NCBI RefSeq assembly: GCF_044704955.1
Contig: NW_027254618.1
Span: 186,001 to 244,790, forward strand
DNA length: 58,790 nucleotides
Reading direction: 5' to 3'
Origin: Pristiophorus japonicus
Lineage: Eukaryota
In this document: positions 26,970-57,145 of the stretch, piece by piece
Numbering within the stretch: position 1 is the first letter of the stretch
How the letters are laid out: each line of letters opens with the position of its first letter
Notes under the pieces: generated by a model
Seen by the model: the letters and a program-made list of their open reading frames with translations, nothing else
Told to the model about the DNA's origin: nothing
Databases searched by the model: none
Translations under genes and position numbers: made by a program

Positions 26970-28765
26970 GCACATGGATCCAGGAGGCCATTCAGTCCCT
27001 CGAGCCTGTTACATAAGGAACAGGGGGAGGCCATTCAGTCCCTCGAGCCTGTTACATAAGGTACAGGAGGAGGCCATTCAGGCCCTCGAGCCTGATACAT
27101 AAGGAACAGGAGGAGGCCATTCAGTCCCACAAGTCTGTTACATAAGGAACAGGGGGAGGCTATTCAGTCCCTCGAGCCTGTTACAGTGGAACAGGAGGAG
27201 GCCATGCAGTTCCTAGAGTCTGTTAAATTAGAATTGGAGGAGGCCATTCAGTCCCTCGACGTGTTACATAAGGAACAGGGGGAGGCCATTCAGTCCCTCG
27301 AACCTGTTACATAGGAACAGGAGGAGGCCATTCAGCCCACCGAGAATGTTATAGGAACTGGAAGAGGCCAATAAGCCAGTTGCACATGTTATAATGCAAT
27401 TGGAGGAGGCCACTCATCCCATCTAACTTATTACACAGGAACAGAAAGTGGCTGTTCAGCACCGAATGTTGTTAGACAGGAACAGGATGAGGCTATTCTT
27501 CCCCTCGAGCCTGTTTCATTGGATCAGGAGAATGCCATTCAGCCCTTCCATTCTGTTATGTGGGAAGAAGTGGAGACCATTCAGCCTCTCTAACATTAGA
27601 AACATGAGCAGACCACTCAGCCTTTGATTCTGTGACATGGGAACAGCAGGATGTTTTTCATCCCCTCGAGCTTCTTACATTAGGAACAGGAGAAGACCAC
27701 TCAGTCCCTCGGGTCTGTTACATAGGAACAGGAGTAGGCCAATTCCACCCCTCGGAACTGTTAACCAGGAACAGGAGGTGACCATTCATCCCCTCGAGCC
27801 TGTTAGAGGAATTGGAGGAGGCCATTCAGCCCCTCCTGCATGTTATATGGGAACTGGGGGAGGACATTCAGCCACTCGAGCATGTGGTATAGGAACAGGG
27901 GGAAGACATTCAGCCCCCAAGCATGTTTAATTAGGATCATGAGCAGGCCATTCAGCCCTTTGACCCTGTGACATGGGAGCAGGAGAAGGCCATAGAACCC
28001 GTCAAGAATGTTATATAGGAAGAGGAGGAGGCCATTCAGCTCCTCGAGCCTATTACATTAGGAACTGGAGAGGGCTTTTCAGTTCCTCGAGCCTATTACA
28101 TTAGGAACCGGAGGAGGCCATTCAGCTCCTCGAGCCTATTACATTAGGAACTGGAGAGGGCTTTTCAGCTCCTCGAGCCTATTACATTAGGAACTGGAGG
28201 AGGCCATTCAGCTCCTCAAGCCTATTACATTAGGAACTGGAGAAGGCCATTCAGTTCCTTGAGCCGATTACATTAGGAACTGGAGAAGGCCATTCAGCAA
28301 CTGGAGTTAAAAAGCAATAGGACAACACAATTCTGCCCCTCGGGTCTGTTACATTAGGAATAGGACAAGGGCAATCATCCCCATGGGATGGTTTCATGGG
28401 AACAGGAGGAAGGCATTCAGCCCCTCGAGCTTGTTCCATCGGGACTGGAGGAGGCTATTCAGCCCCTGGAACCTGTTACACAGGAATAGAAGTGGCTATT
28501 CATAAGAACTAAAGGAGGCTATTCAACCTATTCTAACCTGATACACAGGTACAGGGGAAGGTCATTCTGCCCCGAGAGCTTGTTACATATTAACAGGAGG
28601 AAGCCATTAAGCCCCTCGTGTTTATTACATTAGGAACAGGAGAAGGCCACTCAGTATCTCCAGTCTGTTAATTTAGGAACAGGAGGTGGCCATCAGCCCC
28701 CTCGGGCCTGTTACACAGGAATAGGAGGAGGCCATTCAGCACCACAAACATGTTTAATTTGGATA
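26970..28765. repeat. 43-bp satellite derived from the CR1 3' terminus, about 40 copies
   Basis: Unit AGGAACAGGAGGAGGCCATTCAGCCCCTCGAGCCTGTTACAT; period 43 (CTCGAG at 28043, 28086, 28129); matches reverse CR1 tail AGGAGTAGGCCATTCGGCCC..GAGCCTG. Confidence 0.9.
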
Positions 28766-32308: not shown

Positions 32309-33007
32309 ATGACTGACACTTCAGCCGCCGAAACAGCTCCTTCTGCCGCCGCCGCTCAAGCCAAGGCCCCCCGCAAGAAGAAGAAGGCAGCTCCCCGCTC
32401 CAAGCCAGCCGGCCCCACGTTGGGCGAACAGATCCTCAAGGTTGTGACCGATGGCAGCGATCGCAAGGGGATGTCTCTGGCCGCGATAAAGAAGGCTCTG
32501 GCGGCCAAAGGCGTGGATGTGGAGAAGCGCGGGTCCCAGATCAGGTTCAGTATCAAGAGGAATGTGACAAATGGCTTCCTGCTGCAGACCAAGGGCACGG
32601 GCGCCTCGGGCTCCTTCAAAGTCGCTAAGAAGGAAAACCAGGGGAAAGTGGGAAGGAAGGTGAAGAAACCAGCAGCCAAGAACTCTCCAGCCAAGAAACC
32701 AGCAGCCAAGAAATCTCCAGCCAAGAAACCAGCAGCCAAGAAATCTCCGGCCAAGAAACCAGCAGCCAAGAAATCTCCGGCCAAGAAACCAGCAGCCAAG
32801 AAATCTCCGGCCAAGAAAACGAGCACCAAGAAGGCGCTAACAGTAAAAAAGTCAGCGAAAGCGGCGGCTGGGAAGAAGGCGGCAGCGGCGAAGCCCAAGA
32901 GCCCCAAGAAGGCCTCGGGCGCAAAGGTGAAGGCGGCCAAAAAGGTGGGAAAACCGAGGGCCAAGGCCAAATCAACAAAACCCAAGAAACCAGCGCTCAA
33001 AAAGTAA
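32309..33007 (+). CDS. H1: Histone H1 (232 aa), replication-dependent
   Basis: Globular domain ([23 protein letters not shown]), Lys/Ala/Pro-rich tail, 3' stem-loop. Confidence 0.95.
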
Positions 33008-33042
33008 ATAAAAAGTGCAACTTGTAAACATCTGAACCCAAA

Positions 33043-33080
33043 GGCTCTTCTCAGAGCCACCCACGCCTCTCAGAAAAGAG
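33043..33080 (+). terminator. Histone 3' stem-loop and purine-rich downstream element
   Basis: GGCTCTTCTCAGAGCC-ACCCA followed by AGAAAAGAG. Confidence 0.93.
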
Positions 33081-33807
33081 TTGATCCCCGAATCAAATGA
33101 TCCCTGTCCCGGGGCCGGGCTCAGATTTCAGACAGAAATCATTGAACATGAAGCCAGGATCCCTGGTGACTCGCTGACATTGGCTGCACCCACCCCTCCC
33201 CCAGTGTCTGCAATAAAACACACAGAGAATGGGATGTCCGGCCCGGGCCTCACTGTAACTGGGGATGTGTTCAGCTCCAGTCTCAGTTCCTGGTCATTGT
33301 CATTTCACAGATTCAGGGGGAGAGTGTGTGAGACGGTGACACTGGCGGAGATACCCCGCCTCACAACTCAAACCCCAAACACCACATTCTCCAAATCAGC
33401 TGGAATAAGGTGTTTGAAAACTGCTGAACCCGTCTGTGAGAGGAAGTGTGGGGAGATGGAACAAGGTCTGAGATTGACAGGGAAGGGGCTGTATATAGGC
33501 GGGAATATTCGCGATTGTTAATTGTAGCGGGACTTTATTTAAAAGCTTCAGGTTCCTGGAAGCTTTGAATATAAATTCCGAGTCTGTTTCGGTTCTATTG
33601 TCGGAAAACGGTTTGAAATTAGCGGCTGCAGAAAGCTGGAGCGGAGCTGGAAGATCAGAGGCCGCTCTCTGCTCTGTCTGTCAATCTTGACTATGTCTCC
33701 TCCCCTTCCCGCCTCTCTCACTCTGCGCTTTCTCAGTCAGGTCGGCTCCGGCTCTATAAAAAGGAGCCGGCAGCAGTTCACTTCTCATTCAGCGGCAGTT
33801 TAAGTGA

Positions 33808-34130
<323 letters not shown>

Positions 34131-34264
34131 ATAACTCGACCCTTTTCCCCCAAACACAACACAAAGGCTCTTCTAAGAGCCACCCACCGGCACACAGAGA
34201 GAGCAGCGACCTGGGGATCGGAGCGCGGACAGTTTGGTTGGGAAATGGTTTCGGCTGTTTAATT

Positions 34265-34505
34265 AATGGAAAGAAAGGTTTGGATTTATATTGCGCCTTT
34301 CACGACCACCGAACGTCTCAAGACACAGAAAAATAGAAAATAGGTGCAGGAGTAGGCCATTCGGCCCTTCGAGCCTGCACCGCCATTCAACAAGATCACA
34401 GCTGATCACCTCCACACTCCCCAACCCCCGCCCCCCCCTCAGCCGCAAGGACCACATCCAATGAACAAGACCAATGAAGTACTTTTGGAGTGTAGTCTCT
34501 AGGAA
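34265..34505 (-). mobile_element. SINE/L2 tail with inserted CR1 3' end
   Basis: TTTATATTGCGCCTTTCACGACC tail plus reverse CR1 terminus at 34325-34405. Confidence 0.55.
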
Positions 34506-34959
34506 TATGGGAATTATTAAATATTTTACAACTATTGTAAATATGAGAGATCAGAAACTCCGGCTGACAGTCACAATTACCGGGCAGGATACACAGTCCT
34601 CTTTACACATTACAGTCTCCCCTCACAGATAATTCCTGTCATGTGAGGTTTCTGTGAGAATCGGTTAAGTGGGACGGCACTTGCGGGATCGATGCGGGAC
34701 TTTATGTTTACAGGAAGCAGTGACCGCGGATTTATTCCCGCCCGGTACAGACGGATCAGGGGAATGGAACATAATTCAAACCGGAATGTGACAGAATGGG
34801 ATTGGTGACTTATAATGGGGCACAATCGCCGTTATAAAGAGCGGGATTCTTAAATTGCTGGCGGGAAATTAGATTTTATTTAATCTCTGTTGGTTGATAT
34901 TCTGAAATTGGCGGGCTTTTTGAAATTGACCAAATGTCAGTTTCAGTTCAGCCAATTAG

Positions 34960-35547
<588 letters not shown>

Positions 35548-36252
35548 ACTCCCCCTGCCCCGGCTCCAAGCTTCAGCACCAAGTGCAACAACGGCTCTTT
35601 TCAGAGCCACCAAATCAGCAAAGGAAAGAGCTGCGATCTACTGTAACCAGAGCTTCGTGTTGTTCATTAACCCATTGTAGGGACGGGCAGAGGGTGTGAG
35701 ACTGATTACTGATCGTGTCTTCATATACCAACTCGGTTCACATGGGAATTATTGACGATTAACTGGTGAGTCTTTTAATATTTTCAGAAACTGACATCGG
35801 CTTTGCGTCGCTCTGACCTCGAGTTCCCCGGGGCAGAGCACAGATTTCCCCATTCGGTGTTGCCGGAGAATGGGGGCAGGTAGATCTGGGAAGCACTGCA
35901 ATGGACTCGGGTCCTGTATGTGTGCATCGCTCGCTGCTCCAGTGCGGTCTAAACTGACCGGCTTAGCAGAGAAATACAGAGCCCGGGAACGGCCAGAGCT
36001 CCCGAGAACAAAATCAGCATTCAAACTATCTCAAACCAGACCAGAATTAAACTAGGCCCTTTTATTACTACATTAATTCATCATTGCCGACTCTCTCGTT
36101 TTCAGACAGATTAAAGAATATTTAAAGAACCGGTGGCAGTATTTATACAATTGTTGAGTGACAACTGTAGTTCAATTATTCGCTGTTAACGGGAAGTGTA
36201 TGTGTGAGCAGAGAACCGTAATGCAGAGACCGGGAACTGAAAACTCCCGCGT

Positions 36253-36523
36253 ACGGATAAGGGGAAAGCCATTTAGGACTGAGATGAGGAGAAACGTATT
36301 CACTCAAGAGTTGTTAACCTGTGGAATTCCCTACCGCAGAGTTGTTGATGCCAGTTCGTTACATATATTCAAGAGGGAGTTAGATGTGGCCCTTATGGCT
36401 AAAGGGATATGGAGAGAAAGCAGGAAAGGGGTACTGAGGGAATAATCAGCCATGATCTTATTGAATGGTGGTGCAGGCTCGAAGGGCCGAATGGCCTACT
36501 CCTGCACCTATTTTCTATGTTTC
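36253..36523 (+). mobile_element. CR1 3' fragment
   Basis: CR1 tail; absent from the paralogous spacer near 39765. Confidence 0.85.
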
Positions 36524-36661
36524 CAGGTCTAAAACAGGCCCATCGATCGGTACATGAATTAAAGGGCTCTGACTCCATTAAGACAGTAAGCATCCCCTTC
36601 ACAGATACTGTGGGTGGCTCTGAAAAGAGCCTTTGGGTTATTAGATTAAATCTTGTCCGCT

Positions 36662-37057
<396 letters not shown>

Positions 37058-38006
37058 TCACAAGTTCAGACAAAGAATGAGAAACTCCTCCCACATCTGC
37101 CCTTCTTATACATTCTGGAGGGATGCAGGGAGCGAACTTGTGATTGGTCGCTCTGAAGTGGATTTCATTGGTCTTTTCCGCTGACCAATCACCGTCTGTT
37201 TAGCCCGCCAATGTAAACAGGGCGAAAATTACTGTTCGACTGCCAACGAATCTTCAATTTCAAAAACCCCGCCAATAATTTTTACAATGCGGATTATGTT
37301 AATAAATTCAACATTAGCCAAAGATTTCCAAACACTTTTTATTTCCTTTTGCCGTATTCTTTATTGCCTTCCAAATTCCAGGATGTTACAATCAGGATTA
37401 AATTCGGGTTCAGTTTCAAACGTTCTGTAACGGGACACATTCCAGCTCAATCTTTGTACAATTTGGGAATCACAGATCATGGATCGATCATCCGCACAGG
37501 CGGCAGTGAGACCAGAACTGGGAGTTCTTCTGTGAAAAGAGGGACAGAGGGTTCAAACTCCCTGTTCTGGTCTCTGTAAGAACTCCCAGTCTGGGCTGTT
37601 GCACTCGGAATCTCGGATTAATAAGCGGGTTGACCCGAACTAGAATTTTTTTTATATTGTAAAGGGTTTGAGAGAGAATGAGGTGACTAAAGTCTGAGTT
37701 TCACCTCCTAAAACAAGATCATAATTCATTGGCAGGCGACCAGGGACAGTGTGTGCAGTTTACTGGGAGGAAAATTCATCAGAGAAGCTAAGGTTGAACC
37801 GGACAGTAAAACCGCTTATCTGATAATTCAAATCTAAATCTACAGCTGGAATTTTAAATGCTGTCAAACACACTTGCTCAGGAAATAAATACAGTAAATT
37901 GAGTTTAAAGGGTGATGTGTTTGTGCAGCTCTTTCAGAGACGTTGTGGGTGGCTCTTAAAAGAGCCGTTGTGTTTAGGGATTGTTGTGTCAGGACAACGT
38001 GGAGTT

Positions 38007-38384
38007 TTACTTGGAGCTGGTGTACTTGGTCACCGCCTTTGTCCCTTCCGATACGGCGTGCTTGGCCAGCTCCCCGGGTAGCAGCAGACGCACGGCGGTC
38101 TGGATCTCCCGGGAGCTGATGGTGCGGCGCTTGTTGTAATGGGCCAGGCGGGAAGCCTCACCTGCGATGCGCTCGAAAATATCGTTCACAAAAGAGTTCA
38201 TGATGCCCATGGCCTTGGAGGAGATGCCGGTGTCGGGGTGAACCTGCTTCATCACTTTGTAGATGTAGATGGAGTAACTCTCCTTCCTCGACTTCCTGCG
38301 CTTCTTACCGCCCTTTGGTGGTGTTTTCTTGATCACTTTCTTGGCGCCTTTCTTGGCAGTAACTGATTTCTTCTCTTCAGGCAT
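38007..38384 (-). CDS. H2B: Histone H2B (125 aa)
   Basis: [28 protein letters not shown]; stem-loop at 37951-37966; TATA, octamer-like ATTAGCAT and CCAAT upstream. Confidence 0.96.
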
Positions 38385-38899
38385 CGTCTTGTTCAATCCA
38401 ACCCAGACATGACGTAAACTTAGCTCGGAGCTCGCATTATATAGGCAGCCCCACACTCCGCCCACAGCTCTATGCTAATGAGGGATGGGTGAAGGCAACA
38501 ATTGTGATTGGTTCACTCACTGCGTTGTCAATTTCTATTGTTCTGTAATTCTCTGATTGGATGTTTAAAGAGACCAATCAGATTTACTGCTCGCCACAAT
38601 CTCAAATTCTTCAATTAGGTCATCAGTTACATCCCCTCCCGACTTATACTCTGTTCTTTATCGATCTAGATTTCTACATGTTTGACAGACATTGACCGGT
38701 TTGTAACCGAGATTGCCTGAGGGCCACTTCTGGTCAGGACTTGGAAGTCTATGAGGTCAAAAGACCCTCAATGTCCTTCCTCCCTAATGCTGCCTTCCTC
38801 CCACCGTTTAATTCAACACCTTTCTTATCTTTCACTGCTGTAACTACATTAGTTGTTTCAGTGTTACCTTCACCTGGAATATGCCGTACCTTCTGTGCC

Positions 38900-39200
38900 G
38901 TAAAGGGCCTATTTCCCTTAGCACAGGAGGCATAAATTTAAAGTAATTGGTAGAAGATTTAGAGGGGAAATATCTTCACGCAGAGGGTGGCTGCGCTCTG
39001 GAACTCACTGCCTGAAAGGGTGGTAGAGGCAGAAACCCTCACCACATTTAAAACTACTTGGATGTGCACTTGAAGTGCCGTAACCTGCAGGGTTACGGAC
39101 CTAGAGCTGGAAAGTGGGATTCGGCTGGATAGCCTTTTGTTGGCCAGCACGGACACGATGGGCCGAAGTGGCCTCATTCCGTGTTGTAAGCTTCGATGAT
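38900..39200 (+). mobile_element. CR1 3' fragment
   Basis: Similar to 4950-5260. Confidence 0.75.
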
Positions 39201-39324
39201 AAATATCTATAATTCTGAAACTAAAAGGATATTCCGTCCATCGTGCATATGCTGATTTAAAATATCTATCGATACCGAACAAAATGTAAATGAACTATAT
39301 CTCCCTCCCTCCCCCCGTGAGGCG

Positions 39325-39468
39325 GTGGGTGGGACTTAGAAGAGCCTTTGCTTTGTGCTTGGGGGAAAGAGAGTCCCGTTGAATCCATAGAAAGTGCGGC
39401 CCTGCCGTTTCAGAGTGCACACCACATCCATGGCAGTGACCGTCTTGCGCTTGGCTGCTCAGTGTAGG
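39325..39468 (-). pseudogene. H4: Histone H4 3' fragment
   Basis: [25 protein letters not shown] plus degenerate stem-loop; 5' part deleted and joined to the H2A downstream spacer. Confidence 0.85.
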
Positions 39469-39897
39469 CCTAAACTGACCGGCTTAGGAGAAAAATACAC
39501 AGCCCGGAACGACTGGATCCCCGGGAACAGAACCAGCATTCAAACTCTCAAACCAGACCAGAATTAAACTAGGCCCTTTTAATAACCGCCGACTTTCTTC
39601 ATACAGCTTTCATTGATAAGATTAAATATTTAGGGAACCGGTTGCGGTATTTATACAAGTTTTGAGTCTCTGACAACTGTAGTTTAATTATTAGCTGCTA
39701 ACTAGAACAGTTTGCGTGAGCAGAAAACCATAATGGAAATACCAGGAACTGAAAACTCCCGCATACAGGTCTGAAATAGACCAATTTATCGGTACCTGAA
39801 CTCAAGGTCTCCATTAATACAGTAAGCAGCCCTTTCACAGATACTGTGAGTGGCTCTGAAAAGAGCCTTTGGGTTATTAGTTTAAATCTTGTCCGCT

Positions 39898-40341
<444 letters not shown>

Positions 40342-41672
40342 TTATCCCTTCTGGAGGGATGCAGGGAGCGAACTTGTGATTGGTCACTCTGTCGTGGATT
40401 TCATTGGCCGTTTCCGATGACCAATCACAGCCTGTCTAGTCCACCAATGAAAGGAGGGCGGAAATTACTGGTTTCCCAACAGCCAGAACCTAACGATTTT
40501 TTAAATTCAAAAATCCCGCCAATAATTGTGAAAATTGCGGATTGAGTTAGTAACTTCACCATTAGCCAAATACTTCAAAACACTTTTTGTTTCCTTTTGT
40601 CTTATTCCATATTTCCCTTGCAAATTCCAGCCTGTAACAATTAGGATTAAATTCGGCTTCAGCTTCAAACTGTCTGTAACGGGCGGGACTCAGTCCCCAC
40701 TGATTCTGTAACAGGACACATTCCAGCTCCATCTTCGTAAAAGTGAACTTGTTTTCACAGGAGCTGCTGTGGGAGTGAGACCAGAACTGAGAGTCCTTCT
40801 GTAAAAAGAGAAGAGGGACAGGGTGTTCAAACTGCCCCTGTTCCAATCTCTAAGAACTCCCATTCTGGGTTGTTACACTGCGGGGAGTCTCGAGTTAATA
40901 AACGGACTGAGCGCAACGGAATAAAAAAAACTCGTGAAAAGGACTTGATTGAGAACGTGACTGAAATCGGAGTTTCCCCGCCCCCCAAAATAAATTCGTC
41001 GGCATGCGCTGTGAATGAACGGGTCTGAGAACAAAGGGAAAGCGACCAGGGACCGTGTTTGTAGTTTACTCACTGCAGGAAATTCCAGCGACGCCAAGGT
41101 CAAGCCGGTCAGTGAAGCTACTTATGAGAATTCAAAACTAAATCTACAGCTGGAACTACAAAGGTTCTCACACACACTTGTTCAGGAAATAATTACAGTA
41201 AATTCAGTCTAAAGGGTGATGTTTGTGCAGCTCTTTCAATGATGTTGTGGGTGGCTCTTAAAAGAGCCGTTGTGTTTGGGGTTTGTTCTGTCAGGACAGC
41301 GTGGAGTTTTACTTGGAGCTGGTGTATTTGGTCACCGCCTTTGACCCTTCCGACACGGCGTGCTTGGTCAGCTCCCCGGGCAGCAGCAGGCGCACGGCGG
41401 TCTGGATCTCCCGGGAACTGATGGTGCGGCGTTTGTTGTAATGGGCCAGGCGGGAAGCCTCACCCGCAATGCGCTCGAAAATATTATTCACAAACGAGTT
41501 CATGATGCCCATGGCCTTGGAGGAGATGCCGGTGTCGGGGTGAACCTGCTTCATCACTTTGTAGATGTAGATAGCATAACTCTCCTTCCTCGAATTTCGG
41601 CGCTTCTTGCCGCCCTTTGGTGATGTTTTTTTGATGACTTTTTTGGCACCCTTTTTCGAAGCTGGTTTCTTT

Positions 41673-41984
41673 TTTTATTATTCGTTGCCAATCTTTCCAA
41701 TTCTTTGTGAGATCATAAACGCCAGAGGTCACCTTGCACCCATCAAGGATCACTCTGCGCCAATGCTCTTAGCCAAAAGGCCTCGAGCCCAAGCACCGTT
41801 CCTGGAAGTACTGCAATATCAGGTTCGTGCCATGGAGGTGGATGGGTCAAGCCCCACACCCACCTCCTATTTCCAAAAAGCATAGGAGAACCACCTTCCT
41901 GATCCAGGGAGAACCACTTTCTGGTCATGGTTATTCCCCTGTCAGGTCAGTTACGCATGATCTTGGCCAAAAAACCGAGAAGCT
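41673..41984 (-). mobile_element. U2/U1 snRNA-derived SINE-like element, copy C (full length)
   Basis: GCTTCTCGGtTTTTGGCcAAGATCA (U2 5'), ACTGACCTGACAGGGGAATAACCATGA..GTGGTTCTCCC (U1 5'), TATTGCAGTACTTCCAGGAACGGTGC (U2 3'), A-rich tail, target duplication. Confidence 0.85.
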
Positions 41985-41993
41985 GGTTTCTTT

Positions 41994-42345
41994 TTTTTTA
42001 AATTCGTAGCCAATCGTTCCAATTCTTTGTCAAATCACAAACGCCAGAGGTCACCTTGGGCCCATTCAAGGATCACTCTGCGCCAATGCTCTTAGCCAAA
42101 AGGCCTAGAGCCACTGCACCGTTCCTGGAAGTACTGCAATACCAGGTTCGTGCCATGGAGGTGGATAGGTCAGGTCCCCCACACACCTCCGTGGAGGTGG
42201 ATGGGTCAAACCACCCCACCCACCTCCTATTTCCAAAAAAGCAAGCATATACCTTCCTGATCCAGGGAGAACCACCTTGGGGTTATGGTGGTTACTCCCC
42301 TGTCAGGTCAGTTACGCATGATCTTAGCCAAAAGGCCGAGAAGCG
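41994..42345 (-). mobile_element. U2/U1 snRNA-derived SINE-like element, copy B (full length)
   Basis: 27 nt identical to vertebrate U2 nt 3-29; U1-like segment; 32/33 match to the U2 3' end; poly(A) followed by AAAAGAAACC. Confidence 0.88.
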
Positions 42346-42354
42346 GGTTTCTTT

Positions 42355-42588
42355 TTTTTTAAAATTCGTAGCCAATCGTTCCAACTCTCCGTCAAATCAC
42401 AAACGCCAGAGGCCACCCTGCACCTGCCAAGGACCACTCTGCGCCAATGCTCCTAGCCAAAAGGCCCAGAGCCACCGCACCGCCCCTGGAAGCACCGCAA
42501 CACCAGGCTCGTGCCATGGAGGTGGACGGGCCAGGTCCCCCACACACCCCCGTGGAGGCGGATGGGCCAACCCTCCCCACCCACCTCG
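42355..42588 (-). mobile_element. U2/U1 snRNA-derived SINE-like element, copy A (5'-truncated, A-to-G hypermutated)
   Basis: Aligns to the 3' ~225 nt of copy B with about 21 A-to-G differences; poly(A) and target duplication. Confidence 0.85.
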
Positions 42589-43177
42589 GGTTTCTTTTCC
42601 TCAGGCATCGTCTTGTTCAGTCGGGTAGATATGAAGGAAATTTTGCTCCGGGCTCGCATTATGTAGGTAGCCCCACACTCCGCCCACAACCTTATGCTAA
42701 TGAGGGATGGGTGAAGGCAATGACTGTGATTGGTTCATTGGCTGCGTTGTCAATTTCCATTGTTCTGTATCTCTCTGATTGGTATCTTTAAACATCCAAT
42801 CAGATTTATTGTTTGCCACAATCTCAAATTCTTAAATTAGGTCATCAATGACATCCCCTCCCGATTTATATTCCGTTTTTGTTTCTATTCTGCTCTCAGG
42901 CAAAAATGGTTAATGACGGCCGGACTTATGAGGAAGGTTCATTCACGTTTTTTTCTATATATACATTCAATAATCTGAACAGCTGTGTTTGTCGATCTAC
43001 ATTTCTACATGTTCGAGACATTGACCGGTTTGTAACCGAGATTTCCTGAGGGTCACTTCTGATCAGGACTTGGGAGTCCTTCTATGAGGGCAAGGGACCC
43101 TCACTGTCCTTCTGCCCTGATGCTGCCTTCCTCCCATCGTTTAATTCAACATCTTTCTTATCTGTCACTGCTGTAAC

Positions 43178-44446
43178 ATGGATGTAACAGTATGGATTTA
43201 TGAAGGGGAAGTCATGTTTGACAAATTTGCTGGAATTCTTTGAGGATGTCACGCACAGGGTGGATAATGGGGAAGTAGTGGATGTGGTGTATTTGGACTT
43301 CCAGAACGCATTTGACAAGGTGCCACATAAAAGGTTACTGACTGCACAAGATAAAAGTTCACGGGGTTGGGGGTAATATATTAGCATGGATAGAGGATTG
43401 GCTAACAAACAGAAACCAGAGAGTGGGGATAAATGGTTCATTCCCGGGTTGGCAATCAGTAACCAAGGGGATGCCACAGGAATCAGTGCTAGGACCCCAA
43501 CTATTTATGATCTATATTAATGACTTGGAAGAAGGGACCGAGAGTAACGCAGCCAAGTTTGCTGACGATACAAAGATAGGAGGAAAAGCAATGGGTGAGG
43601 AGGACACAAATTCTGCAAAAGGACATACAGGCTAAGTGAGTGAGCAAGGATTTGGCAGATGGAGTATAATATTGGAAAGTGTGAGGTCATGCTCTTTGAT
43701 TTGTGCAAGTGCAAGTTATTATTTCAATGGTGAAAGATTGCAAAGTGCTGCAGTTCAGCGGGACCTGGGGGTACTTGTGCATGAAACACAAAAGGTTAGT
43801 ATGCAGGTACAGCAAGTGATCAGGAAGGCCAATGGAATCTGGCTTTTATTGCAAAGGGGATGGAGTATAAAAGCAGGGAAGTCTTGCTACAGTTGTACAG
43901 GGTATTGGTGAGGCCACACCTGGAATACTTCATGCAGTTTTGGTTTCTATATTTACAAAAAGGATATACTTGCTTTGGAGGCAGTTCAGAGAAGTTTCAC
44001 AAGGTTGATTCCAGAATGAGGGGGTTGACTTGAGGAAAGGTAGAGTAGGTTGGGCTTCTACTCATTGGAATTCAGAAGAATGAGAGGTGATCTTATCGAA
44101 ACATATAAGATTATGAGGGGGCTTAACAAGGTGGATGCAGAGAGGATGTTTCCACTGCTAGGGGAAACTAGAACTAGAGGGCTTAATCTTAGAATAAGAG
44201 GTCGCCCATTTAAAACTGAGATGAGGAGAAATTTCTTCTCTGAGGATTGTGAATCTGTGGAATTCGCTGCCTCAGAGCTGGGACATTGAATAAAATTAAG
44301 ACAGAAACAGACAGTTTCTTAATAAGGGAATATGGGGCAGGGAAGTAGACCAGAGTCCATGATCGTATTAAATGGCGGAGCAGGCTCGAGGGGCCGTATG
44401 GCCTACATTTGCTCCTATTTCTTATGTTTTTATGTTCTTATGTTCT
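43178..44446 (+). mobile_element. CR1 (RT to 3' end) inserted in the H4-H2B spacer
   Basis: YLDFQ.AFDKVPH, SVLGPQLF, KFADDTK motifs; empty site GCTGTAACTACATTAG near 38838; TAAC repeated at both ends. Confidence 0.9.
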
Positions 44447-44719
44447 AACTACATTAGTTTTTTCAGTATTACCTTCATCTGGAATGTCCCGTAAATGTCT
44501 ATGATTTGAAGACTAAAAGGACATTCTGTCCATCGTTTATATGCTGATTTAAAACACCTAACACCACAATACAGATCTTGGCAAAAAACATATCTATACA
44601 GAACAAAATGTAAATCAACGATCTCGCCCCCGTTCCCCAGGTCACTGCTCTCTCTGTGAAGAGGTGGGTGGCTCTGAGAAGAGCCTTTGTGTTGTGTTTG
44701 GGAGAAAGGGTCACGTTAT

Positions 44720-45031
44720 TCAGCCGCCGAATCCATAGAGAGTGCGGCTCTGCTGTTTCAGAGCGTACACCACATCCATGGCAGTGACAGTCTTGCGCTT
44801 GGCGTACTCAGTGTCGGTGACCGCATCCCTGATCACATTCTCCAGAAAAACCCTCAGCACCCCGCGGGTTTCCTCGTAGATCAGGCCCGAGATCCGCTTG
44901 ACACGGCCACGGCGAGCCAGGCGGCGGATGGCTGGTTTGGTGATGCCCTGGATGTTATTACGGAGCACTTTATGGTGCCGTTTGGCTCTGCCTTTACCCA
45001 GTCCTTTGCCTCCTTTACCTCCTCCAGCCAT
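44720..45031 (-). pseudogene. H4: Divergent histone H4 (open ORF, 11 substitutions)
   Basis: S1A,R3G,G14R,R19H,D24N,G42R,K59R,Y72D,H75Y,R92Q,G94S; stem-loop near 44670-44685; upstream sequence is H2A-promoter-like. Confidence 0.8.
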
Positions 45032-45965: not shown

Positions 45966-46910
<945 letters not shown>

Positions 46911-46964
46911 GATATGTTTCAATAGTGAAACAGCATTTGATCCTACCGCTCTGTGTGGCTGTAA

Positions 46965-48270
46965 GATTCACAATGTAACTCAGCCACTTCGGATCACTGT
47001 TGGACTGACAGCTTCTGCTGCCTGCGATAACAGGATTGAGGTCAGTTCTGTGTCTCTGCGCTCTGAGTGATAATGTACTTACTGTATGCGAGAAGGAGCT
47101 GCCTGCACTTTGTCTTGTGTTCTGGATGGAAGAAATATCATTTTATACTGGCTCAATGAAGTATTTTGCTTTGAGAATAATAATACCAGAAAAATATTAG
47201 TTATGATATGGACAACTGATGGGGAAAATATAAAATAAAGTTGCAATGAATGTATATGTTTATAATAAAGTAAAATATCTGGAGAGAGGAAACCGTGATA
47301 CAAACAGTGTCCTTGTCTGACCTCACTGCAGTACAGCGGCACTCAGATTTTCCACACCAGGTGTGTAGGACGGTTCTATAGAAAGTTATCAGCAACCAGA
47401 CACAACCCAAACCCAGCACTGGTCCATGAATGGGATCACCCGATTAATACAATCAAGGTTTATATCCTCCACTCCCATAGGACTACCTGTAAAATTCTGA
47501 ATCGCTTTCTGGATTATAACCACAGGTACATGGGCTGTACAACAATTGTTCTCAGTCTATTGGAACCGAGTTAAGTGCCTGTGCAGTCAACAGAATGTCA
47601 CAGAGCCCGGATCATGATGTATCGGAGGGAGCAACAATGTATCTCTCGATCACCTTCAACACGGTTCTGGAGAACTCAACGCACCAAAACAAAATGACCA
47701 AATTTGAAATGTCTACTTTCTGTCCTGGTGCCTGCAATAGATACACTTTGTGACACTCCTCACATCCTCACTGTCAGGCTGTGTTTCCACTGTTCAATGT
47801 CCAAGAAGGGCAGACACGGTGAGATTGGGACTGAATCAGGAACATTCACTACTGGTTTGGTGACAGAAACCAGCAATGATTTGAAAGAGTGTGGTGATTA
47901 ACTTTCTCTGTTACCTTACACTGTACACACACAGCCCGGGATATCTCCGCTCCCTTCCCCCACTCACTCCACGTTCCCGAACTACTTTCTGCTCCATTCT
48001 GCCTCTTACAAACAGCCCCCGATTCCCTGACACAAAGCCCATTTGCGGACACAGTCCCAACGCGATGAGCTGCTGTAAGGTGGCTGCTGTTTGCTCCCTT
48101 ACACTGGCCCGGGATATCTCCGCTCCCTGATGTGTTCAATGATTATCAGCCCAGCACAGAGGAAATGGCAGCCACAGGCAGAGTTGGGGGAGGGGAGGTC
48201 GCATAGGCCCTTCCCGTCGGTTTAAACACTGGGCGGGGAGACGAGTGGCCGGGGGCGGGGGGGCAGCAGG
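46965..48270 (-). other. Repeated non-coding module, copy 2
   Basis: Colinear with 54745-56680; GTAAGT donor on - at 47077-47082. Confidence 0.65.
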
Positions 48271-48351
48271 CAAGTATTTCAATGCTCGAGTGTGAAGTTT
48301 GGAGGTGGATCTGGAAGCTCAGAGGCCGCTGTCTCTGTTCAATCTGTCACC

Positions 48352-48672
48352 CTGTATTGTTCAGACTATGGGATGTGAGTCTGTGTTTTACATTGTATAG
48401 TTCAGACTATGGGATGTGAGTGTGTGTTTTACACTGTATAGTTCAGACTATGGGATGTGAGTGTGTGTTTCACACTGTATTGTTCAGACTATGGGATGAG
48501 AGTGTGTGTTTTACACTGTATAGTTCAGACTATGGGATGTGAGTGTGTGTTTTACACTGTATATTTCAGACTATGGGATGTGAGTGTGTGTTTCACACTG
48601 TATTGTTCAGACTATGGGATGTGAGTGTGGGTTTTACACTGTATTGATCAGACTATGGGATGTGAGTGTGTT
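48352..48672. repeat. Homogeneous 41-bp tandem repeat, about 8 copies
   Basis: Unit TTCAGACTATGGGATGTGAGTGTGTGTTTTACACTGTATAG. Confidence 0.93.
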
Positions 48673-48689
48673 GTTAAATTTTATATGAA

Positions 48690-49683
48690 TGGAAAAGCCG
48701 AATGTTTAAAAGAAGAGAGACTAGTAAATGTAGTTATTCAGGGGGATTTGAGTATCATTGTACACGAATCACATAGTTAACTTGCAGCTACTGCAAGCAA
48801 TTAGGAAGGTAAAGGATATGTTGGCCTTTATTACAAGGGGTTTGGAGTATAAGAGTAAAGAAGTGTGGCTGCAATTATGTCGGGCTTTGGTGAGACCACA
48901 CCTGGATTACTGGGCACAGTTTTGGTCTCAGTGCCTAAGGAAGGATATTAGAGGGGGTGCAACATTGAATCCTGGGATAGAGAGATTGAGTGAAATGCAC
49001 CTATACACTCTGGAGTTTAGAAGAATGAGAGCTGAGCTCATTGAAACCTAAAAAAAAAATCTTAGAAGGCTTGACAGGGTAGGTGCTGTGAGGATGTTTC
49101 CCTTTGCTGGATAGTCTCGATCTAGGGGGTCATAGAAACATAGAAAATAGGTGCAGGAGTAGGCCATTCGGCCCTTCTAGCCTGCACCGCCATTCAATGA
49201 GTTCATGGCTGAACATGCAACTTCAGTACCCCATTCCTGCTTTCTCACCATACCCCTTGATCCCCCTAGTAATAAGGACTTCATCTAACTCGTTTTTGAA
49301 TATATTTAGTGAATTAGCCTCAACAACTTTCTGTGGTAGAGAATTCCACAGGTTCACCACTCTCTGGGTGAAGAAGTTCCTCCTCATCTCGGTCCTAAAT
49401 GGCTTACCCCTTATCCTTAGACTGTGTCATAGTCTCAGGATAAGGGATCAGGCACTTAGGACTGAGATGAGGAGAAATATATTCACTCAGAGGGATGTGA
49501 ATCCTTGGAATTCTATACACATAGGTCTGAGACACTCATTGAGTATATTCAAGACAGAGAACAAAGGGAATCAAGGGAAATGGGTATCAGGCAGGAGTTC
49601 AGGGTGAAGTTCAGCCATGAATGTAATGAATTGCGGAGCAGGCTCGAGCGGCCTTACTGCCTGCTATTTCTTATTTTCTTATA
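48690..49683 (+). mobile_element. Old CR1 with a young inverted CR1 3' end nested at 49136-49425
   Basis: RPHLDYWAQFWS motif; GTCATAG duplicated at 49129-49135 and 49426-49432. Confidence 0.85.
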
Positions 49684-51603
49684 GCTGTCAGTATCTGGTA
49701 TGTGAGTGTTGTTCTTTCTTCAGTTTTTGGTGGGCAAAAGTGGGTTTTATTATACACCATGTCAGCTTCTGGAATATGACTGCGAGTTCCACTCTGTTTT
49801 TGCCTGTCTCCAGGATGCGAGTGTGGATTTTCCTATGTACCTGTCGGTCTCTGGTATGTCAATGCAGGTATTACCCTGCACCTGTCAGTTTCTCGTATGT
49901 GATTGGGGATTTATTCTGTACTTGTCATTTTCTGAATTTGTAACATGGGTTTTCCTCTGTACCTGCCAGTTTCTGGGATGTGAGTGTTAATTCTTTCTGA
50001 TTCTGTCTGTTTCCGGTATAGGAATGTAGGTAAAACTCTGTAGTTCTCAGTCTCTGGGATGTGAGTGTGCGTTTTACTCTATCAGTCAGTCTTCGGTATG
50101 TGAGTGTGGGTTTTATTCTATAGCTGTCCTTCTCTGCTGTGCGAGTGTGATTTTACACTTTATCATTCAGACTCTGGTATGTGAGTGGGGTTTTATTCTG
50201 TACCTGTCATTTTCTGATATGTTAACGTGGGCTTTAATCAGAACCTGCCAGTTTCTGATATGCGAGTGTGGATTTTAGCCTGTATCTGTCAGTTTATGAT
50301 ATGTGAGAGTGGGTATCTCTCATTGTCTTTTATGTAAGTGTAAGTTTTACTCTGTATTGCTTAGTCTTGGATATGGGAGTACAGAATTTGCTCTATGGTT
50401 GTCTGTCTGTGTGATGCAAGTGTAGATTTTACTCTGTATCTGTTAGTCTCTGATGTGAGAGTGAGAGTTTTACTCTGTCAGTTTCTGGTATGCAAGTGTG
50501 ATTTTCTTCTATCATTCAGGCTCTGGGATGAAAGTGAGAGTTTTACTCTCTGTTAATATCTGCGACGTGAGTCTGGGTTGTCCTCTGTAACTTTCATTTT
50601 CTCAAATCTGAGTTGGGTTTTATTTTGTACCTGTTAGTTTCTAGTATATGAATAGGGGTTTTAATCTGTACCTGTCAGTATCTGCTGTGATAGTGCTGCT
50701 TTTGTGCTGTATCTGTCAGTTTCTGATATGTGAGTCTGTTTTAATCTGTACCTGTTAGGTTGTGGTACGTGAGCGTGTGTTTGTTTGACTCTGCATCGAT
50801 CAGTATCTTTTATGTGGCTGTTGATTTTGCTCTGTAGTTGTCACTCTCTGGGATGTGAATGTGGGTTTGACTCTGTAGCTGTCATTTTCTTATGTGTGAG
50901 TGTGTCATAGACTGTATGTGTCACTCTATGGTGTGAGTGTGGGCTTTACTCTGTATCTGTCAGTTTTTGGAATGTGAGTTTGGTTTTAATCTTTACCTGT
51001 CAATTTCTGGTATTTGTCTGTTGTTGTTACACTCCAACCGTTAGTTTCCAGGATGTGATTGTGTATTTTAATCAGTACCTGCCAGTTTCTTGTACCGGAG
51101 TGTGGATATTAGTCATATCTTCCAGTCTCTGGTATGTGAGTGTGTGTTTTACTTTATAGCTGTCTGACTCTGGGATGCAAGTGTACATTTTATTCTGTAT
51201 CTATTGGTTTACAGAATGTGTTAACAAAAGCTGAAGGGTACAGAATAAAAGTTATGTGAATATCCATTTTACTCTGCACCAGTCACTTTCCAATAGGTGT
51301 GTGTGGATTTTAACCTAGATCTGCCAGTCAGTCAGTCTGTTACCATATGTGATTGTGATTCAATCGCAATCTGTCATTCACTGTACCCGAGTGTATGTAT
51401 CATTATGTGTGTCTCAGTCTCTAGCACTGTTTGTGGGTGTGGGGTCCATTCTGTGTCTCTCAGTCCCTGGCACTGTTTGTGGGTATGGGGTTCATTCTGT
51501 AACTGTCAGTTTCTGTTACTGTTTGAGAGTGTGAGATTGATTATGTATCTGTTAGACTGGTGATGTGTGTGAGTGTGAGATTCATTATGTAATTGACAGT
51601 CTC
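49684..51603. repeat. Degenerate 41-bp satellite
   Basis: Recurrent TCTGTACCTGTCAGTTTCTGGTATGTGAGTGTG variants. Confidence 0.85.
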
Positions 51604-51604
51604 T

Positions 51605-54440
51605 TAGAAACATAGAAAATAGGTGCAGGAGTAGGCCATTCGGCCCTTCTAGCCTGCACCGCCATTCAATGAGTTCATGGCTGAACATGCAACTTCAGTA
51701 CCCCATTCCTTCTTTCTCACCATACCTCTTGATTCCCCTAGTAGTAAGGACTTCATCTAACTCCTTTTTGAATATATTTAGTGAATTGGCCTCAACAACT
51801 TTCTGTGGTAGAGAATTCCACAGGTTCACCACTCTCTGGGTGAAGAAATTCCTCCTCATCTCGGTCCTAAATGGCTTACCCCTTATCCTTAGACTGTGTC
51901 CCCTGGTTCTGGACTTCCCCAACATTGGGAACATTCTTCCTGCATCTAACCTGTCTAACCCCGTCAGAATTTTAAACGTTTCTATGAAGTCCCCTCTCAT
52001 TCTTCTGAACTCCAGTGAATACAAGCCCAGTTGATCCAGTCTTTCTTGATGGGTCAGTCCCGCCATCCCGGGAATCAGTCTGGTGAACCTTCGCTGCACT
52101 CCCTCAATAGCAAGAATGTCCTTCCTCAGGTTAGGAGACCAAAACTGTACACAATACTCCAGGTGTGGCCCCACCAAGGCCCTGTACAACTGTAGCAACA
52201 CCTCCCTGCCCCTGTACTCAAATCCCCTCGCTATGAAGGCCAACATGCTATTTGCTTTCTTAACCGCCTGCTGTACCTGCATGCCAACCTTCAATGACTG
52301 ATGTACCATGACACCCAGGTCTCGTTGCACCTCCCCTTTTCCTAATCTGTCACCATTCAGATAATAGTCTGTCTCTCTGTTTTTACCACCAAAGTGGATA
52401 ACCTCACAGTTATCCACATTATACTTCATCTGCCATGCATTTGCCCACTCACCTAACCTATCCAAGTCGCTCTGCAGCCTCATAGCATCCTCCTCGCAGC
52501 TCACACTGCCACCCAACTTAGTGTCATCCGCAAATTTGGAGATACTACATTTAATCCCATCGTCTAAATCATTAATGTACAGTGTAACAGCTGGGGCCCC
52601 AGCACAGAACCTTGCGGTACCCCATTAGTCACTGCCTGCCATTCTGAAAAGTCCCCATTTACTCGTACTCTTTGCTTCCTGTCTGACAACCAGTTCTCAA
52701 TCCATGTCAGCACACTACCCCCAATCCCATGCTTTAACTTTGCACATTAATCTCTTGTGTGGGACCTTGTCGAAAGCCTTCTGAAAGTCCAAATATACCA
52801 CATCAACTGGTTCTCCCTTGTCCACTCTACTGGAAACATCCTCAAAAAATTCCAGAAGATTTGTCAAGCATGATTTCCCTTTCACAAATCCATGCTGACT
52901 TGGACCTATCATAGCACCTCTTTCCAAATGCACTGCTATGACATCCTTAATAATTGATTCCATCATTTTACCCACTACCGATGTCAGGCTGACTGGTCTA
53001 TAATTCCGTGTTATCTCTCTCCCTCCTTTTTTTAAAAAGTGGGGTTACATTGGCTACCCTCCACTCCATAGGAACTGATCCAGTCAATGGAATGTTGGAA
53101 AATGACTGTCAATGCATCCACTATTTCCAAGGCCACCTCCTTAAGTACTCTGGGATGCAGGCCATCAGACCCTGGGGATTTATCGGTCTTCAATCCCATC
53201 AATTTCCCCAAACAATTTCCTGACTAATAAGGATTTCCCTCAGTTCCTCCTCCTTTCTAGACCCTCCGACCCCTTTTATATCCGGAAGGTTGTTTGTGTC
53301 CTCCTCAGTGAATACCGAACCAAAGTACTTGTTCAATTGGTCCGCCATTTCTTTGTTCCCCGTTATGACTTCCCCTGATTCTGACTGCAGGGGACCTACG
53401 TTTGTCTTTACTAACCTTTTTCTCTTTACATATCTATAGAAACTTTTGTAATCCGTCTTAATGTTCCCTGCAAGCTTCTTCTCGTACTCCATTTTCCCTG
53501 CCCTAATCAAACCCTTTGTCCTCCTCTGCTGAGTTCTAAATTTCTCCCAGTCCCCGGGTTCGCTGCTATTTCTGGCCAATTTGTATGCCACTTCCTTGGC
53601 TTTAATACTATCCCTGATTTCCCTTGATAGCCACGGTTGAGCCACCTTCCCTTTTTTATTTTTACGCCAGACAGGAATGTACAATTGTTGTAGTTCATCC
53701 ATGCGGTCTCTAAATGTCTGCCATTGCCCATCCACAGTCAACCCCTTCAGTATCATTCGCCAATCTATCCTAGCCAATTCACGCCTCATACCTTCAAAGT
53801 TACCCTTCTTTAAGTTCTGGACCATGGTCTCTGAATTAACTGTTTCATTCTCCATCCTAATGCAGAATTCCACCATATTATGGTCACTCTTCCCCAAGGG
53901 GCCTTGCACAACGAGATTGCTAATTAATCCTCTCTCATTACACAACACCCAGTCTAAGATGGCCTCCCCCCTAGTTGGTTCCTCGACATATTGGTCTAAA
54001 AAACCATCCCTTATGCACTCCAGGAAATCCTCCTCCACCGTATTGCTTCCAGTTTGGTTAACCCAATCTATGTGCATATTAAAGTCACCCATTATAACTG
54101 CTGCACCTTTATTGCACGCACCCCTAATTTCATGTTTGATGCCCTCCCAAACATCACTACTACTGTTTGGAGGTCTGTACACAACTCCCACTAACGTTTT
54201 TTGCCCTTTGGTATTCTGCAGCTCTACCCATATAGATTCCACATCATCCAAGCTAATCTCCTTCTGAACTATTGCCTTAATTTCCTCCTTAGCCAGCAAT
54301 GCTACCCCACCTCCTTTTCCTTTTATTCTATCTTTCCTGAATGTTGACTACCCCTGGATGTTGAGTTCCCAGCCCTGATAATCCTGGAGCCACGTCTCCG
54401 TAATCCCAATCACATCATATTTGTTAACATCTATTTGCAC
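51605..54440 (-). mobile_element. Long CR1 LINE (most of ORF2: endonuclease and RT, frameshifted)
   Basis: ORFs 53199-54299 (YRPPN, MGDFN, SDH), 52715-52975 (YLDFQKAFDKVPH) and 51695-52516; intact 3' tail. Confidence 0.95.
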
Positions 54441-54744
54441 TGTACTGTGCTATTCTTGCTCTGTGTGACTGTTGGATTCTGTTCCTTCTTTAGGCCTATG
54501 TTAGTTTGAGATTATCCGCGATTGTCTCAGGAGGAGGTTTGGTTCAGTCCATTACCTCCGTTTCTCTGCTCTTGTATGTTAGTTGCTGCGTTTGAGAGTC
54601 AGTGTACAGACATCAGTGTGGATTGACACCGTGTCAGTCAGTCCTTGTGTGTGAGTAAGGGAGTGAAAATGGATCTGCCTCTCAGAGCGATATGTTTGGA
54701 CTTTGAAACATCATCTTATTGTACTGTTCCAAGTGACAGTGGGA

Positions 54745-56680
54745 GTCATAATGTAACTCTGGGATTCGGATCACTGTGGGACTGACAGCTTCTGCTACCT
54801 GTGACAATATGATTGAGATCAGTTCTGTGCCTCTGTGAGTGATAATGTACTTACTGTGTGTGAGAAGGAGCTGCCTGCACTGTTCCTTGTGTTCCAGGTG
54901 GCGGAAGGATCACATTTATTCTGGGGGTGAAGTATTTTGCTCTGAGAATAATAATGAGAAAAATATTAGGTACAAGTCATGGACAGGTGCCCATAGACTA
55001 TAACAATAGTTATAATTACTGTGTATTTTTATCACAAAGTAAAGTATCTGGAGAGAGGAATGCGCGATACAAACAGTGACATTGTCTGACCTCACTGCAG
55101 TACAGCGGCACTCAGATTCTCTCATCATCATCATCATCATCATAGGCGGTCCCTCGAACCAGGATGACTTGCTTCCACGTGAGTTCAGATGTTTCAATGA
55201 AGGACCTGATATTCCAGTCCTGAACTCCAATTGAAAGGGTGGAAGATGCCTGTGCGTGGATTTTTTAAACGTGTGGTGACCATTACACATCAGCCACCAC
55301 ACGGGCTTGACAGAGCTCGGCCTTTATCCAGTAGCAAGGGTTGACCAGGACTGGAGACCTGCTCGGCTGCACAGACCTAGTGCGCACAGACCCAGTGTGG
55401 GCTGGCCTGTGCTGCCCCTGGGCCCTGTACCCTCATTCGCCGCACCTCCGTCACAATCTCTCGCCGCTCCTCCGCCACAAACATTCGCCGCACCTCCGCC
55501 ATGATCTCCCACCGCACATCCATTACAAACATTTGCCGAACCTCCGCCACGATCTCTCGCCGCTCCTCCGCCATAAAACACTTGCCGCACCTCCGTCATG
55601 ATCGCCCACCGCACATCCACACCAAACATTCGCCGAACCTCCGCCACGATCACCCACCGAATCTCAGCCACGATCCCTCAATGCCCCTCCGCCTCGATCA
55701 CTCACCACACCTCCGCCACGACCATGAGCAGAGGAGCGGGACGGTCGTGGTGGAGGTGTGGCGAGTGATCAGATTCCCCACACCAGCTGTGTCAGACGGT
55801 TCTATAGTAAGTTATCAGCATCCAGACACAACCCAAACCCAGCACTGGTCCATGAATGGGAACACCCGATTGGCAGAGTCCAGGTTTATATCTCCCACTT
55901 CCATGGGACAATCTGTAAAGTTCTGAATCGCTTCCTGGAATATAACCACAGGTATCTGGGCTGTACAACAATTGTTTTCAGTCTAATGAAACAGAGCTGA
56001 GAGCCTGTACAGTTAACAGAATGTCACAGATGTATCTGAGGGAGCGACAATGTATCTCTCGATCACCAGCAACACGGTTCTAGAGAATTCAACGCACCGA
56101 AACAAAATAACCGATTATTGAAATGTCTCCTGTCACACTCCTCTCCTGGTGCCTGCAATAGATGCACTTTGTGACACTCCTCCCATCCTCACTCTCAGGC
56201 TGTGTTTCCACTGTTCAATGTCCCAGAACAACAGACACTGTGAGATTGGAACTGAATCAGGAACATTCATTACTGATTTGGGGAAAGAAAGCAGCACTGA
56301 TTTGAAAGTGCGAGGTGGTTTACTTTCTCTGTTACCTTACACCGTACACACACAGCCCGAGAATGGCCTCTCCCTTCCCCCACTCACTCCATGTTCCGGA
56401 ACTAGTTCCTGCTCCACTCCACCTATTACAGACAGCCCCCGACTGCCGCTGCACTTACCCCGACTCAAAGGCCATCTGTGGACACAGTCCCAATGTGCTG
56501 TAAGGAGGCTGCTGTTTGCTCCCTTACTTGGGCCCGGGATATCTCCGCTCTCTGATGTGTTCAACGATCATCAGCCCAGCACAGAGTAAACGGCAGCCGC
56601 TGACAGAGCTGGAGGAGGGGAGCTTGCCTGGGCCCTGCTTGTCGGTTTAAACACTGTGTGGGGAGGGGAGGAGCAGCATG
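54745..56680 (-). other. Repeated non-coding module, copy 3
   Basis: Colinear with copy 2 except for the insertion at 55120-55768; GTAAGT donor at 54849-54854. Confidence 0.65.
55120..55768 (-). mobile_element. Non-LTR insertion with (ATG)n tail (RTE-like) containing a GC-rich ~37-bp minisatellite
   Basis: (CAT)n at 55123-55143; TCAGATTC duplicated at 55112-55119 and 55769-55776; absent from copy 2. Confidence 0.7.
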
Positions 56681-56874
56681 TATTTAGCGCATGCTCAGAC
56701 CATCTTTTTGTCACAAATTAAATTCACAAAAATGGATTGTTTCATAAGTTGATTTTATCTCTAATTAAATAGGTCACATTGAGAGGATTTTAATTATAAT
56801 CCGAATTACCAACAAAATGATTCGGTGTGCCGGACACTGGAGTGGGATTTCCTCGAGAGTTTTACTCTTTCCGT

Positions 56875-57145
56875 CAGTCTCTGGTGTGTGTGAGTGTGCC
56901 CCTGTCATTTCTGATAGGGGACTATGGGTTTTATTTGCTGCATATTATTGTTCTGATAACTGGGTGTGGGTTTTATTCTGTACCTGTCAGTCTCTGCTAT
57001 GGGAATGTGGGTTTTATTCTGTACCTGTCAGTCTATGTTGTGAAAGTGTGCATTTTACTCTGTACCTGTCAGTTTCTAATATGAGTGTGTAGATTTTTTT
57101 CTGTACCTGTCAATCTCTGGAATGTGAGTTTGGGTTTATTCTATT
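56875..57145. repeat. 41-bp satellite remnant
   Basis: Same consensus. Confidence 0.8.

Follow-up and report, generated by a model that had tools for sequence, protein, structure and literature searches.

We analyzed a 58,790-nt stretch of the Pristiophorus japonicus genome (the window). It contains a histone cluster at 32309–45031, extending to about 46200, with H1, H3, two H2A, two H2B and H4 genes, a degenerate H2B-like copy and nine histone stem-loop matches. Several 41–43-bp tandem satellite arrays lie beside the cluster (25482–28740 and 46082–57142), and 84-bp zinc-finger-like repeats occupy 1947–2876. A 651-bp repeat is present as two inverted copies, 97% identical and 45 kb apart (6192–6842 and 51610–52260), which are probably LINE 3′ fragments. 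On the minus strand, to which the coordinates of the interrupted gene and its insert refer, a histone H2B gene is interrupted. Its 5′ end (42591–42608; intact paralog at 38007–38384) encodes MPEEKK, after which the reading frame is broken by an insert; the remainder of the coding sequence (41309–41665) stays open to the stop codon in translation, and an Rfam scan placed the histone 3′ stem-loop of the gene at 41228–41273.

Sequence inspection and repeat analysis of the window resolved the insert into three head-to-tail units, denoted A, B and C (42587–41674), with a period of 361. Each unit is followed by poly(A) and by an identical 10-bp target-site duplication, AAAAGAAACC, and the three represent different subfamilies. 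The upstream copy of the duplication (42589–42598) is followed by base 42588, a repeat of the first base of the copy B head, and then by copy A (42356–42587), the newest unit, which is 5′-truncated at about nt 119. The next duplication (42346–42355) separates A from copy B (41995–42345), a full-length member of the young subfamily that departs at two positions from the majority base in an alignment of 69 copies. Another (41985–41994) separates B from copy C (41674–41983), a full-length member of an older subfamily that lacks an internal duplication, differs from the young majority by 28 substitutions and was the first insertion at the site; the last duplication (41664–41673) lies downstream. 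Four paralogous loci, with flanks 97%–99.7% identical, carry B and C and no A. Because of these four loci, and because the junction of A includes the first base of B, the order of events is C, B, segmental duplication and A, with each later unit inserted in front of the previous one. We rejected H2B as a specific target, since a single event, multiplied by segmental duplication, accounts for all five H2B loci. A master role for the B copies in H2B was also rejected; alignment revealed two changes in them that are absent from most copies.

We aligned the units directly to the U1 and U2 genes of the host genome. Copy B opens with U2 nt 3–35 (42313–42345; 31/33, with nt 3–29 identical), followed by the 5′ end and stem-loop I of U1, nt 3–57, within a long predicted hairpin (42256–42312; 45/57). 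The Sm-site region and 3′ stem-loops of U2 come next (nt 96–186, 42114–42244, found by alignment and Rfam); they include a 36-nt internal duplication and match host U2 at 39/55 over nt 96–147 and at 59/80 over nt 109–186. A second U2 5′ hairpin (nt 7–29, 42087–42109; 21/23) leads into a family-specific tail of 84 nt (42003–42086) and poly(A). Alignment found a shorter form of this tail in a simpler family, described below as the U2-U2-tail family, and none in the partner LINE. A preliminary description of this DNA, made from the letters alone, had named these parts apart from the internal duplication (a head matching vertebrate U2 nt 3–29, the U1 5′ end and stem-loop I, the U2 Sm site and 3′ stem-loops, a second U2 5′ hairpin, and a distinct tail with poly(A)), and alignment to the host genes bears out the snRNA-derived ones. 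It had missed three features: the position of the stack in the first codons of an H2B gene, the membership of the three units in different subfamilies and the heavy A>G change of unit A. Copy C follows the same plan minus the internal duplication and plus a second copy of U1 28–47; its U1 piece matches the host U1 gene at 46/55. Rfam agreed on U2, with scores of 56.3 bits for B and 56.4 bits for C (gathering score 46, E about 1.6e-8). It did not recover the claimed U1 component, for which the whole-window scan returned no hit and an 86-nt slice gave 18.5 bits (gathering 69.5, E 0.0027). B folds better than shuffled sequences (z −5.3), as expected because snRNA stems are included.

Against the closest relative retrieved, copy A shows G at 21 of 48 adenine positions and otherwise differs at one junction base and almost nowhere else, and it was the sole A>G-rich copy flagged in the alignment of 69 copies. 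Editing of a template RNA from A to I by ADAR leaves A>G changes on the sense strand. The changed sites favor a 5′ A or U (9/13 vs. 12/34, p 0.05), and 15 of the 21 are unpaired in a single-strand fold, so that editing would require an antisense RNA to pair with. Copy A is a probable genomic fossil of ADAR-like A-to-I hyper-editing.

Size, age and insertion sites of the family

A search of the 5.9-Gb genome of the same species with copy B returned 2,222 candidates, the best 40 of which are about 99% identical and spread across many contigs, so that copies do occur elsewhere in the source genome as had been anticipated. Exact motifs, whose counts are lower bounds for family size, were found at least 2,081 times for the head junction of B and C, at least 2,434 times for the tail, at least 462 times for the head of a variant subfamily (V) and at least 369 times for the U2-U2-tail family. 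Units are 260–345 bp long plus poly(A), and the window's open reading frame list has no sense-strand frame of ≥80 aa over units A–C. Among 132 loci we resolved target duplications, mostly 7–17 bp, for 67 distinct sites; at 58 of the loci none was resolved automatically. Copy B therefore belongs to a young, dispersed, poly(A)-tailed, target-duplication-flanked family of non-coding retroposons composed of U2 and U1 pieces, whose thousands of copies with common junctions uphold the initial reading as a SINE-like retroelement.

The local consensus at the 67 insertion sites amounts to about 3.5 bits over 45 positions, and the idea of a strong sequence consensus was dropped. Among 38 copies selected by their tails, 21 begin at nt 1–17, 10 at nt 116–124 and seven elsewhere. 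The truncation hot spot at nt 116–124 lies immediately 3′ of the U-tract, where the U2 3′ stem-loop has its base; a reverse transcriptase stop and a processed RNA end are candidate causes. An Sm ring is a doubtful cause, since the U-tract of B is preceded by C and not by the A of the Sm consensus. In a separate observation, three young copies share one position of another short repeat, and a 5′-truncated young copy sits about 1.3 kb from the U1 genes in two U1 clusters.

Runs of T4–T6 are present in all four forms (B, C, V and U2-U2-tail). Searching these with simple A-box and B-box consensus patterns, we found no A-box match in any form and a B-box-like match in the U2-U2-tail form only. The T runs and the lack of box matches in B, C and V argue against polymerase III.

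A partner LINE at U2 nt 38/39 and the stacking of copies

The first lead to a partner was a V copy within a tandem U2 array, in which the poly(A) is followed by U2 nt 39. In the accessible text of two papers, this junction is the target of the LINE Keno (PMC6136364; PMC4640811), and Keno and Utopia use the same U2 junction (PMC4640811). A pattern of poly(A) joined to U2 39–63 had 42 matches in the genome; among 30 examined, 24 were LINE 3′ ends and six were SINE-family ends. One hundred kilobases of the U2 array proved to be crowded with full-length two-ORF LINEs. ORF1 (581 aa) has ZCCHC3-type RNA-binding domains and a zinc knuckle; ORF2 (1,145 aa) has an APE endonuclease, a reverse transcriptase and a zf-RVT domain, and it varies by only 0–4 residues among 12 array copies, each of which has a U2 head. 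The closest pieces of the protein are 81% identical over 70 aa, in a Heterodontus francisci record, and homologs at 39%–49% occur in newt, pufferfish (BAD04856.1) and others. Judged by its ORFs and its U2 38/39 junction, the element works like a Keno-type Tx1 LINE, with a specificity for U2 that appears relaxed. Its exact 3′ UTR motif occurs 182 times, and the first 30 of these 182 were all dispersed, with none in a U2 gene.

SINE and LINE meet repeatedly at the same sites. Ten of the 30 dispersed LINE ends adjoin a SINE-family copy in the same orientation, and five of seven recurrent non-U2 sites tested hold insertions of both. The insertion hot spots of the SINE are U2, a Gypsy RNase H region and further repeats without assignment. 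At one nucleotide near the end of the Gypsy RNase H coding region we observed independent antisense insertions of all SINE forms and the LINE (L204, L216, L224, L246, L306 and others), with eight SINE loci inserted there. The link to Tx1-clade LINEs drawn in the preliminary description gains substance from these shared targets (U2 38/39 and five other sites), used by an intact Tx1-type LINE of the same genome. Its companion idea, that the SINE tail might match a LINE 3′ UTR, failed: alignment revealed no 3′ similarity between SINE and LINE beyond the U2 head, and we rejected a shared-tail partnership. We consider it very likely that this LINE mobilizes the SINE and recognizes its poly(A) tail rather than a common 3′ sequence; another poly(A)-using LINE could contribute, because no 3′ similarity joins the two.

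The main tandem U2 array (G000:C19:69.62–69.73 Mb, L149–L158, and contigs C1003, C4309, C1832 and C1868) consists of units of about 760 bp with GTT microsatellite spacers and is full of intact LINEs. Some of these LINEs are stacked at nt 38/39 of the U2-like head of another LINE or of a SINE, and in L149 a 3′-truncated, poly(A)-tailed U2 fragment occupies nt 38/39 of a LINE head. Second-type U2 genes and truncated LINE ends form repeating units of about 18–21 kb at G000:C9:113.4–113.8 Mb (L122–L135). In L149 a V copy has a LINE at its nt 38/39, which weakened the notion that the partner is kept out of the element by the U1 piece.

Stacking extends well beyond the H2B locus. Same-orientation neighbors were present in 10/30 loci sampled for B/C, 10/30 for V and 9/30 for the simple U2-U2-tail form. 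On C1, 13 of 117 heads had an exact tail 63–95 bp upstream, vs. 0.002 expected, and none of the 117 had a neighbor on the opposite strand. The weak local consensus is too little to account for stacking, of which site-intrinsic hot spots explain a part. Among tail-selected copies, an upstream neighbor was found for 6/22 with a head and 0/16 without (Fisher p 0.03); by coordinates the figures were 4/33 and 3/67, with several headless residents stacked, and a requirement for a resident head was not established. Re-use of the same nucleotide thousands of times over chance suggests that a resident U2 head may help to attract the next insertion.

In the U2-U2-tail family, a full U2 copy that is 86% identical to host U2 and carries a small deletion precedes U2 2–30 and a shorter tail. 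The family sits on the downstream, older side of stacks and is itself inserted into at its nt 33–38 in 4/30 loci. At L030 a single duplication is associated with, in order, a LINE end, a young B, an intermediate, a C-like copy and the simple U2-U2-tail form. This family looks ancestral. Where the simple form has the Keno site, B, C and V have their U1 piece, which suggests that the U1 fragment was placed by the same machinery. The history may thus have begun with a U2 5′ piece and a tail, in front of which a full U2 was gained to give the U2-U2-tail family; a U1 5′ piece would then have taken the place of U2 36–95 at the Keno site, and internal duplications would have led from C to B and V. 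Stacks such as A-B-C in H2B would arise when, time after time, a new copy takes over the 5′ duplication of its predecessor.

V copies in U2 genes and the question of transcription

How SINEs with snRNA heads (SINEU) are transcribed without an internal promoter is a question left open in the available text of PMC4494074. We searched for the 5′ flank of U2 joined to the SINE head and obtained 20 matches, 18 of which are V copies within U2 genes. Seventeen of the 18 have flanks identical to the uninterrupted gene at 249–250 of 250 positions, and one lies in the second U2 gene type. In all 18 the A tract, often very long, gives way to U2 sequence from nt 39 on. The remaining two matches were B-type copies with chance flanks, and no copy of the B/C type, which is the most numerous and is represented in the window, was found behind either type of U2 flank. 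We also compared 30 dispersed V copies, out of 462 motifs, with the array copy. Seven are 99.3%–99.7% identical to it; the other 23 are 83%–97% identical, and most have a B-like tail. None of the 30 has the U2 5′ flank.

These V copies suggest an answer to the transcription question. We propose a SINEU-like, non-autonomous retroposon: a Keno-type Tx1 LINE with relaxed specificity for U2 nt 38/39 would supply the proteins that copy it by target-primed reverse transcription. Because the element begins with U2 nt 1–28/35, insertion at nt 38/39 would rebuild a seamless U2 5′ end behind the external polymerase II promoter of the gene; because that promoter is retained, RNA could start at U2 +1 with no need for an internal one. 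For the proposal as a whole (a SINEU-like element, a Keno-type LINE partner, sources in U2 genes and stepwise build-up) we estimate a probability of roughly 70%. Its parts differ in strength. That the source copies of V are those landing in U2 genes is somewhat favored, and the same claim for B is rather doubtful. The fullest version is a promoterless SINE lineage, still active, that homes to tandem U2 genes and is transcribed from +1 by the U2 promoter, with an intact Keno-type LINE re-seeding the array and scattering copies genome-wide; we regard it as conceivable at slightly less than even odds. If true, snRNA-headed SINEs would have source loci defined for the first time, and there would be a reason why such heads are selected.

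Two considerations temper the role of the array. The V copies in it may be recent sinks, multiplied along with the array, instead of sources, as sequence identity cannot separate source from sink. Near −60, the second U2 type and the host U1 genes have an element with no counterpart in the 5′ flank of the main array, which also has no octamer in 600 bp; in view of these two gaps, this flank is to be taken as a putative promoter. The genome has two U2 gene types with unrelated flanks (that of L041 vs. those of L122 and L031–L040), and the tandem-array type, which has no obvious PSE-like element, is possibly a separately regulated set, for example germline.

The alternative that survives best keeps the same SINE and LINE partner but has the sources driven from other places, by promoters of the host or of repeats, a scheme that Kojima put forward for SINEU-2 in the accessible text of PMC4494074; the U2-array copies would then be by-products of LINE targeting. 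It would fit the lack of a B-type copy behind a U2 flank and of a clear PSE in the array flank, and recurrent insertion into other repeats and multicopy H2B genes supplies alternative promoters. Against it, the dispersed copies have no common 5′ extension (21/38 tail-selected copies begin at nt 1–17, and flanks differ among copies), the H2B copies of B carry the two changes missing from most copies, and young V copies share >99% identity with the array copy. We consider it unlikely, while still giving it appreciable weight.

That a different LINE (L1, RTE or another Tx1) is the main mobilizer, and that SINE and Keno-type LINE coincide merely because some sites are accessible to insertions in general, is improbable. 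This reading draws on the lack of a common tail and on the weak target consensus given above, but the two elements use U2 38/39 and five further sites to the nucleotide and form mixed stacks on one duplication. We give slightly less credence to homology with the crocodilian SINEU, ancient or horizontally moved, in place of an independent origin. As described in part of PMC4494074, SINEU-3 has a similar plan (U2 5′ 32 nt, an internal gap, the middle of U2 and a unique tail), and Tx1-Mar clusters with Keno; the U1 and U2 pieces here are nonetheless similar to the snRNA genes of the host, the same genome contains a simpler relative, and of 34 sampled words a substantial share was found in one organism only, with 0.21 in a second. 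Finally, a mere sum of independent chimeric snRNA retrocopies, although U1/U2 pieces and template switching are known (discussed in PMC4494074, in its available text), is refuted by thousands of copies with identical junctions, internal duplication and tail, many with zero differences from the majority base, and has a negligible probability.

Comparison with known systems

The partner LINE resembles Keno, as the available text of PMC4640811 and PMC6136364 describes it, in its APE endonuclease, two ORFs and 3′ junction at U2 nt 39. It differs in that most of its 3′ ends lie outside U2 genes, so strict U2 specificity does not apply. Utopia inserts at the same U2 site, yet the accessible part of PMC4640811 assigns it a restriction-like endonuclease, whereas the LINE here has an APE domain. 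In the literature searched we found no non-autonomous partner of Keno within U2 genes. The nearest likeness to such an arrangement is offered by the Drosophila R2 SIDE and R2/R1 SIDE, which are short non-autonomous elements in a tandem RNA gene targeted by a partner LINE. According to the portion of PMC3414825 available, SIDEs are confined to rDNA and derive from LINEs by deletion, keeping a ribozyme and the LINE 3′ end; the SINE described here has neither body nor tail of the LINE, is built of snRNA pieces and is mostly dispersed.

The closest parallel is the crocodilian SINEU, reported in the accessible text of Kojima 2015 (PMC4494074) from crocodilians only and mostly as old copies. The families SINEU-1, -2 and -3 are likewise assembled stepwise from U1/U2 pieces, are <500 bp long and have poly(A) and internal oligo-T. 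As far as that text describes them, they too have no LINE-shared tail, have a partner that was inferred from targets, and form tandem insertions around one target-site duplication. Likened to this published description, the copy B family appears to have the class features tested, namely an snRNA head, a short poly(A) retroposon body, target-site duplications and no polymerase III promoter; judged by shared targets, mobilization by a Tx1-clade LINE appears to be present as well. The literature searched, outside which lie Repbase Reports, Dfam and most subscription papers, yielded no report of an snRNA-headed SINE family in cartilaginous fishes. The present family differs from the crocodilian ones in belonging to another vertebrate lineage, in being very young and in having an intact partner LINE. 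That partner still enters U2 itself, whereas the crocodilian target given in the available text of PMC4494074 is Mariner-N4, and copies in U2 genes behind the native flank are not reported in that text.

We conclude that this is a real, young snRNA-derived SINE family with a probable partner LINE identified in the same genome. Its intermediates form a nearly complete series, it has entered multicopy histone genes, and one genomic copy appears to record A-to-I editing of the template RNA. Since the family is young, intact LINE copies are many and candidate sources lie behind native U2 flanks, the transcription start, the polymerase and trans-mobilization are each directly testable. Set beside the crocodilian SINEU, it would mean that snRNA-headed SINEs had arisen a second time among vertebrates, and it would link the head to the target site of the partner.
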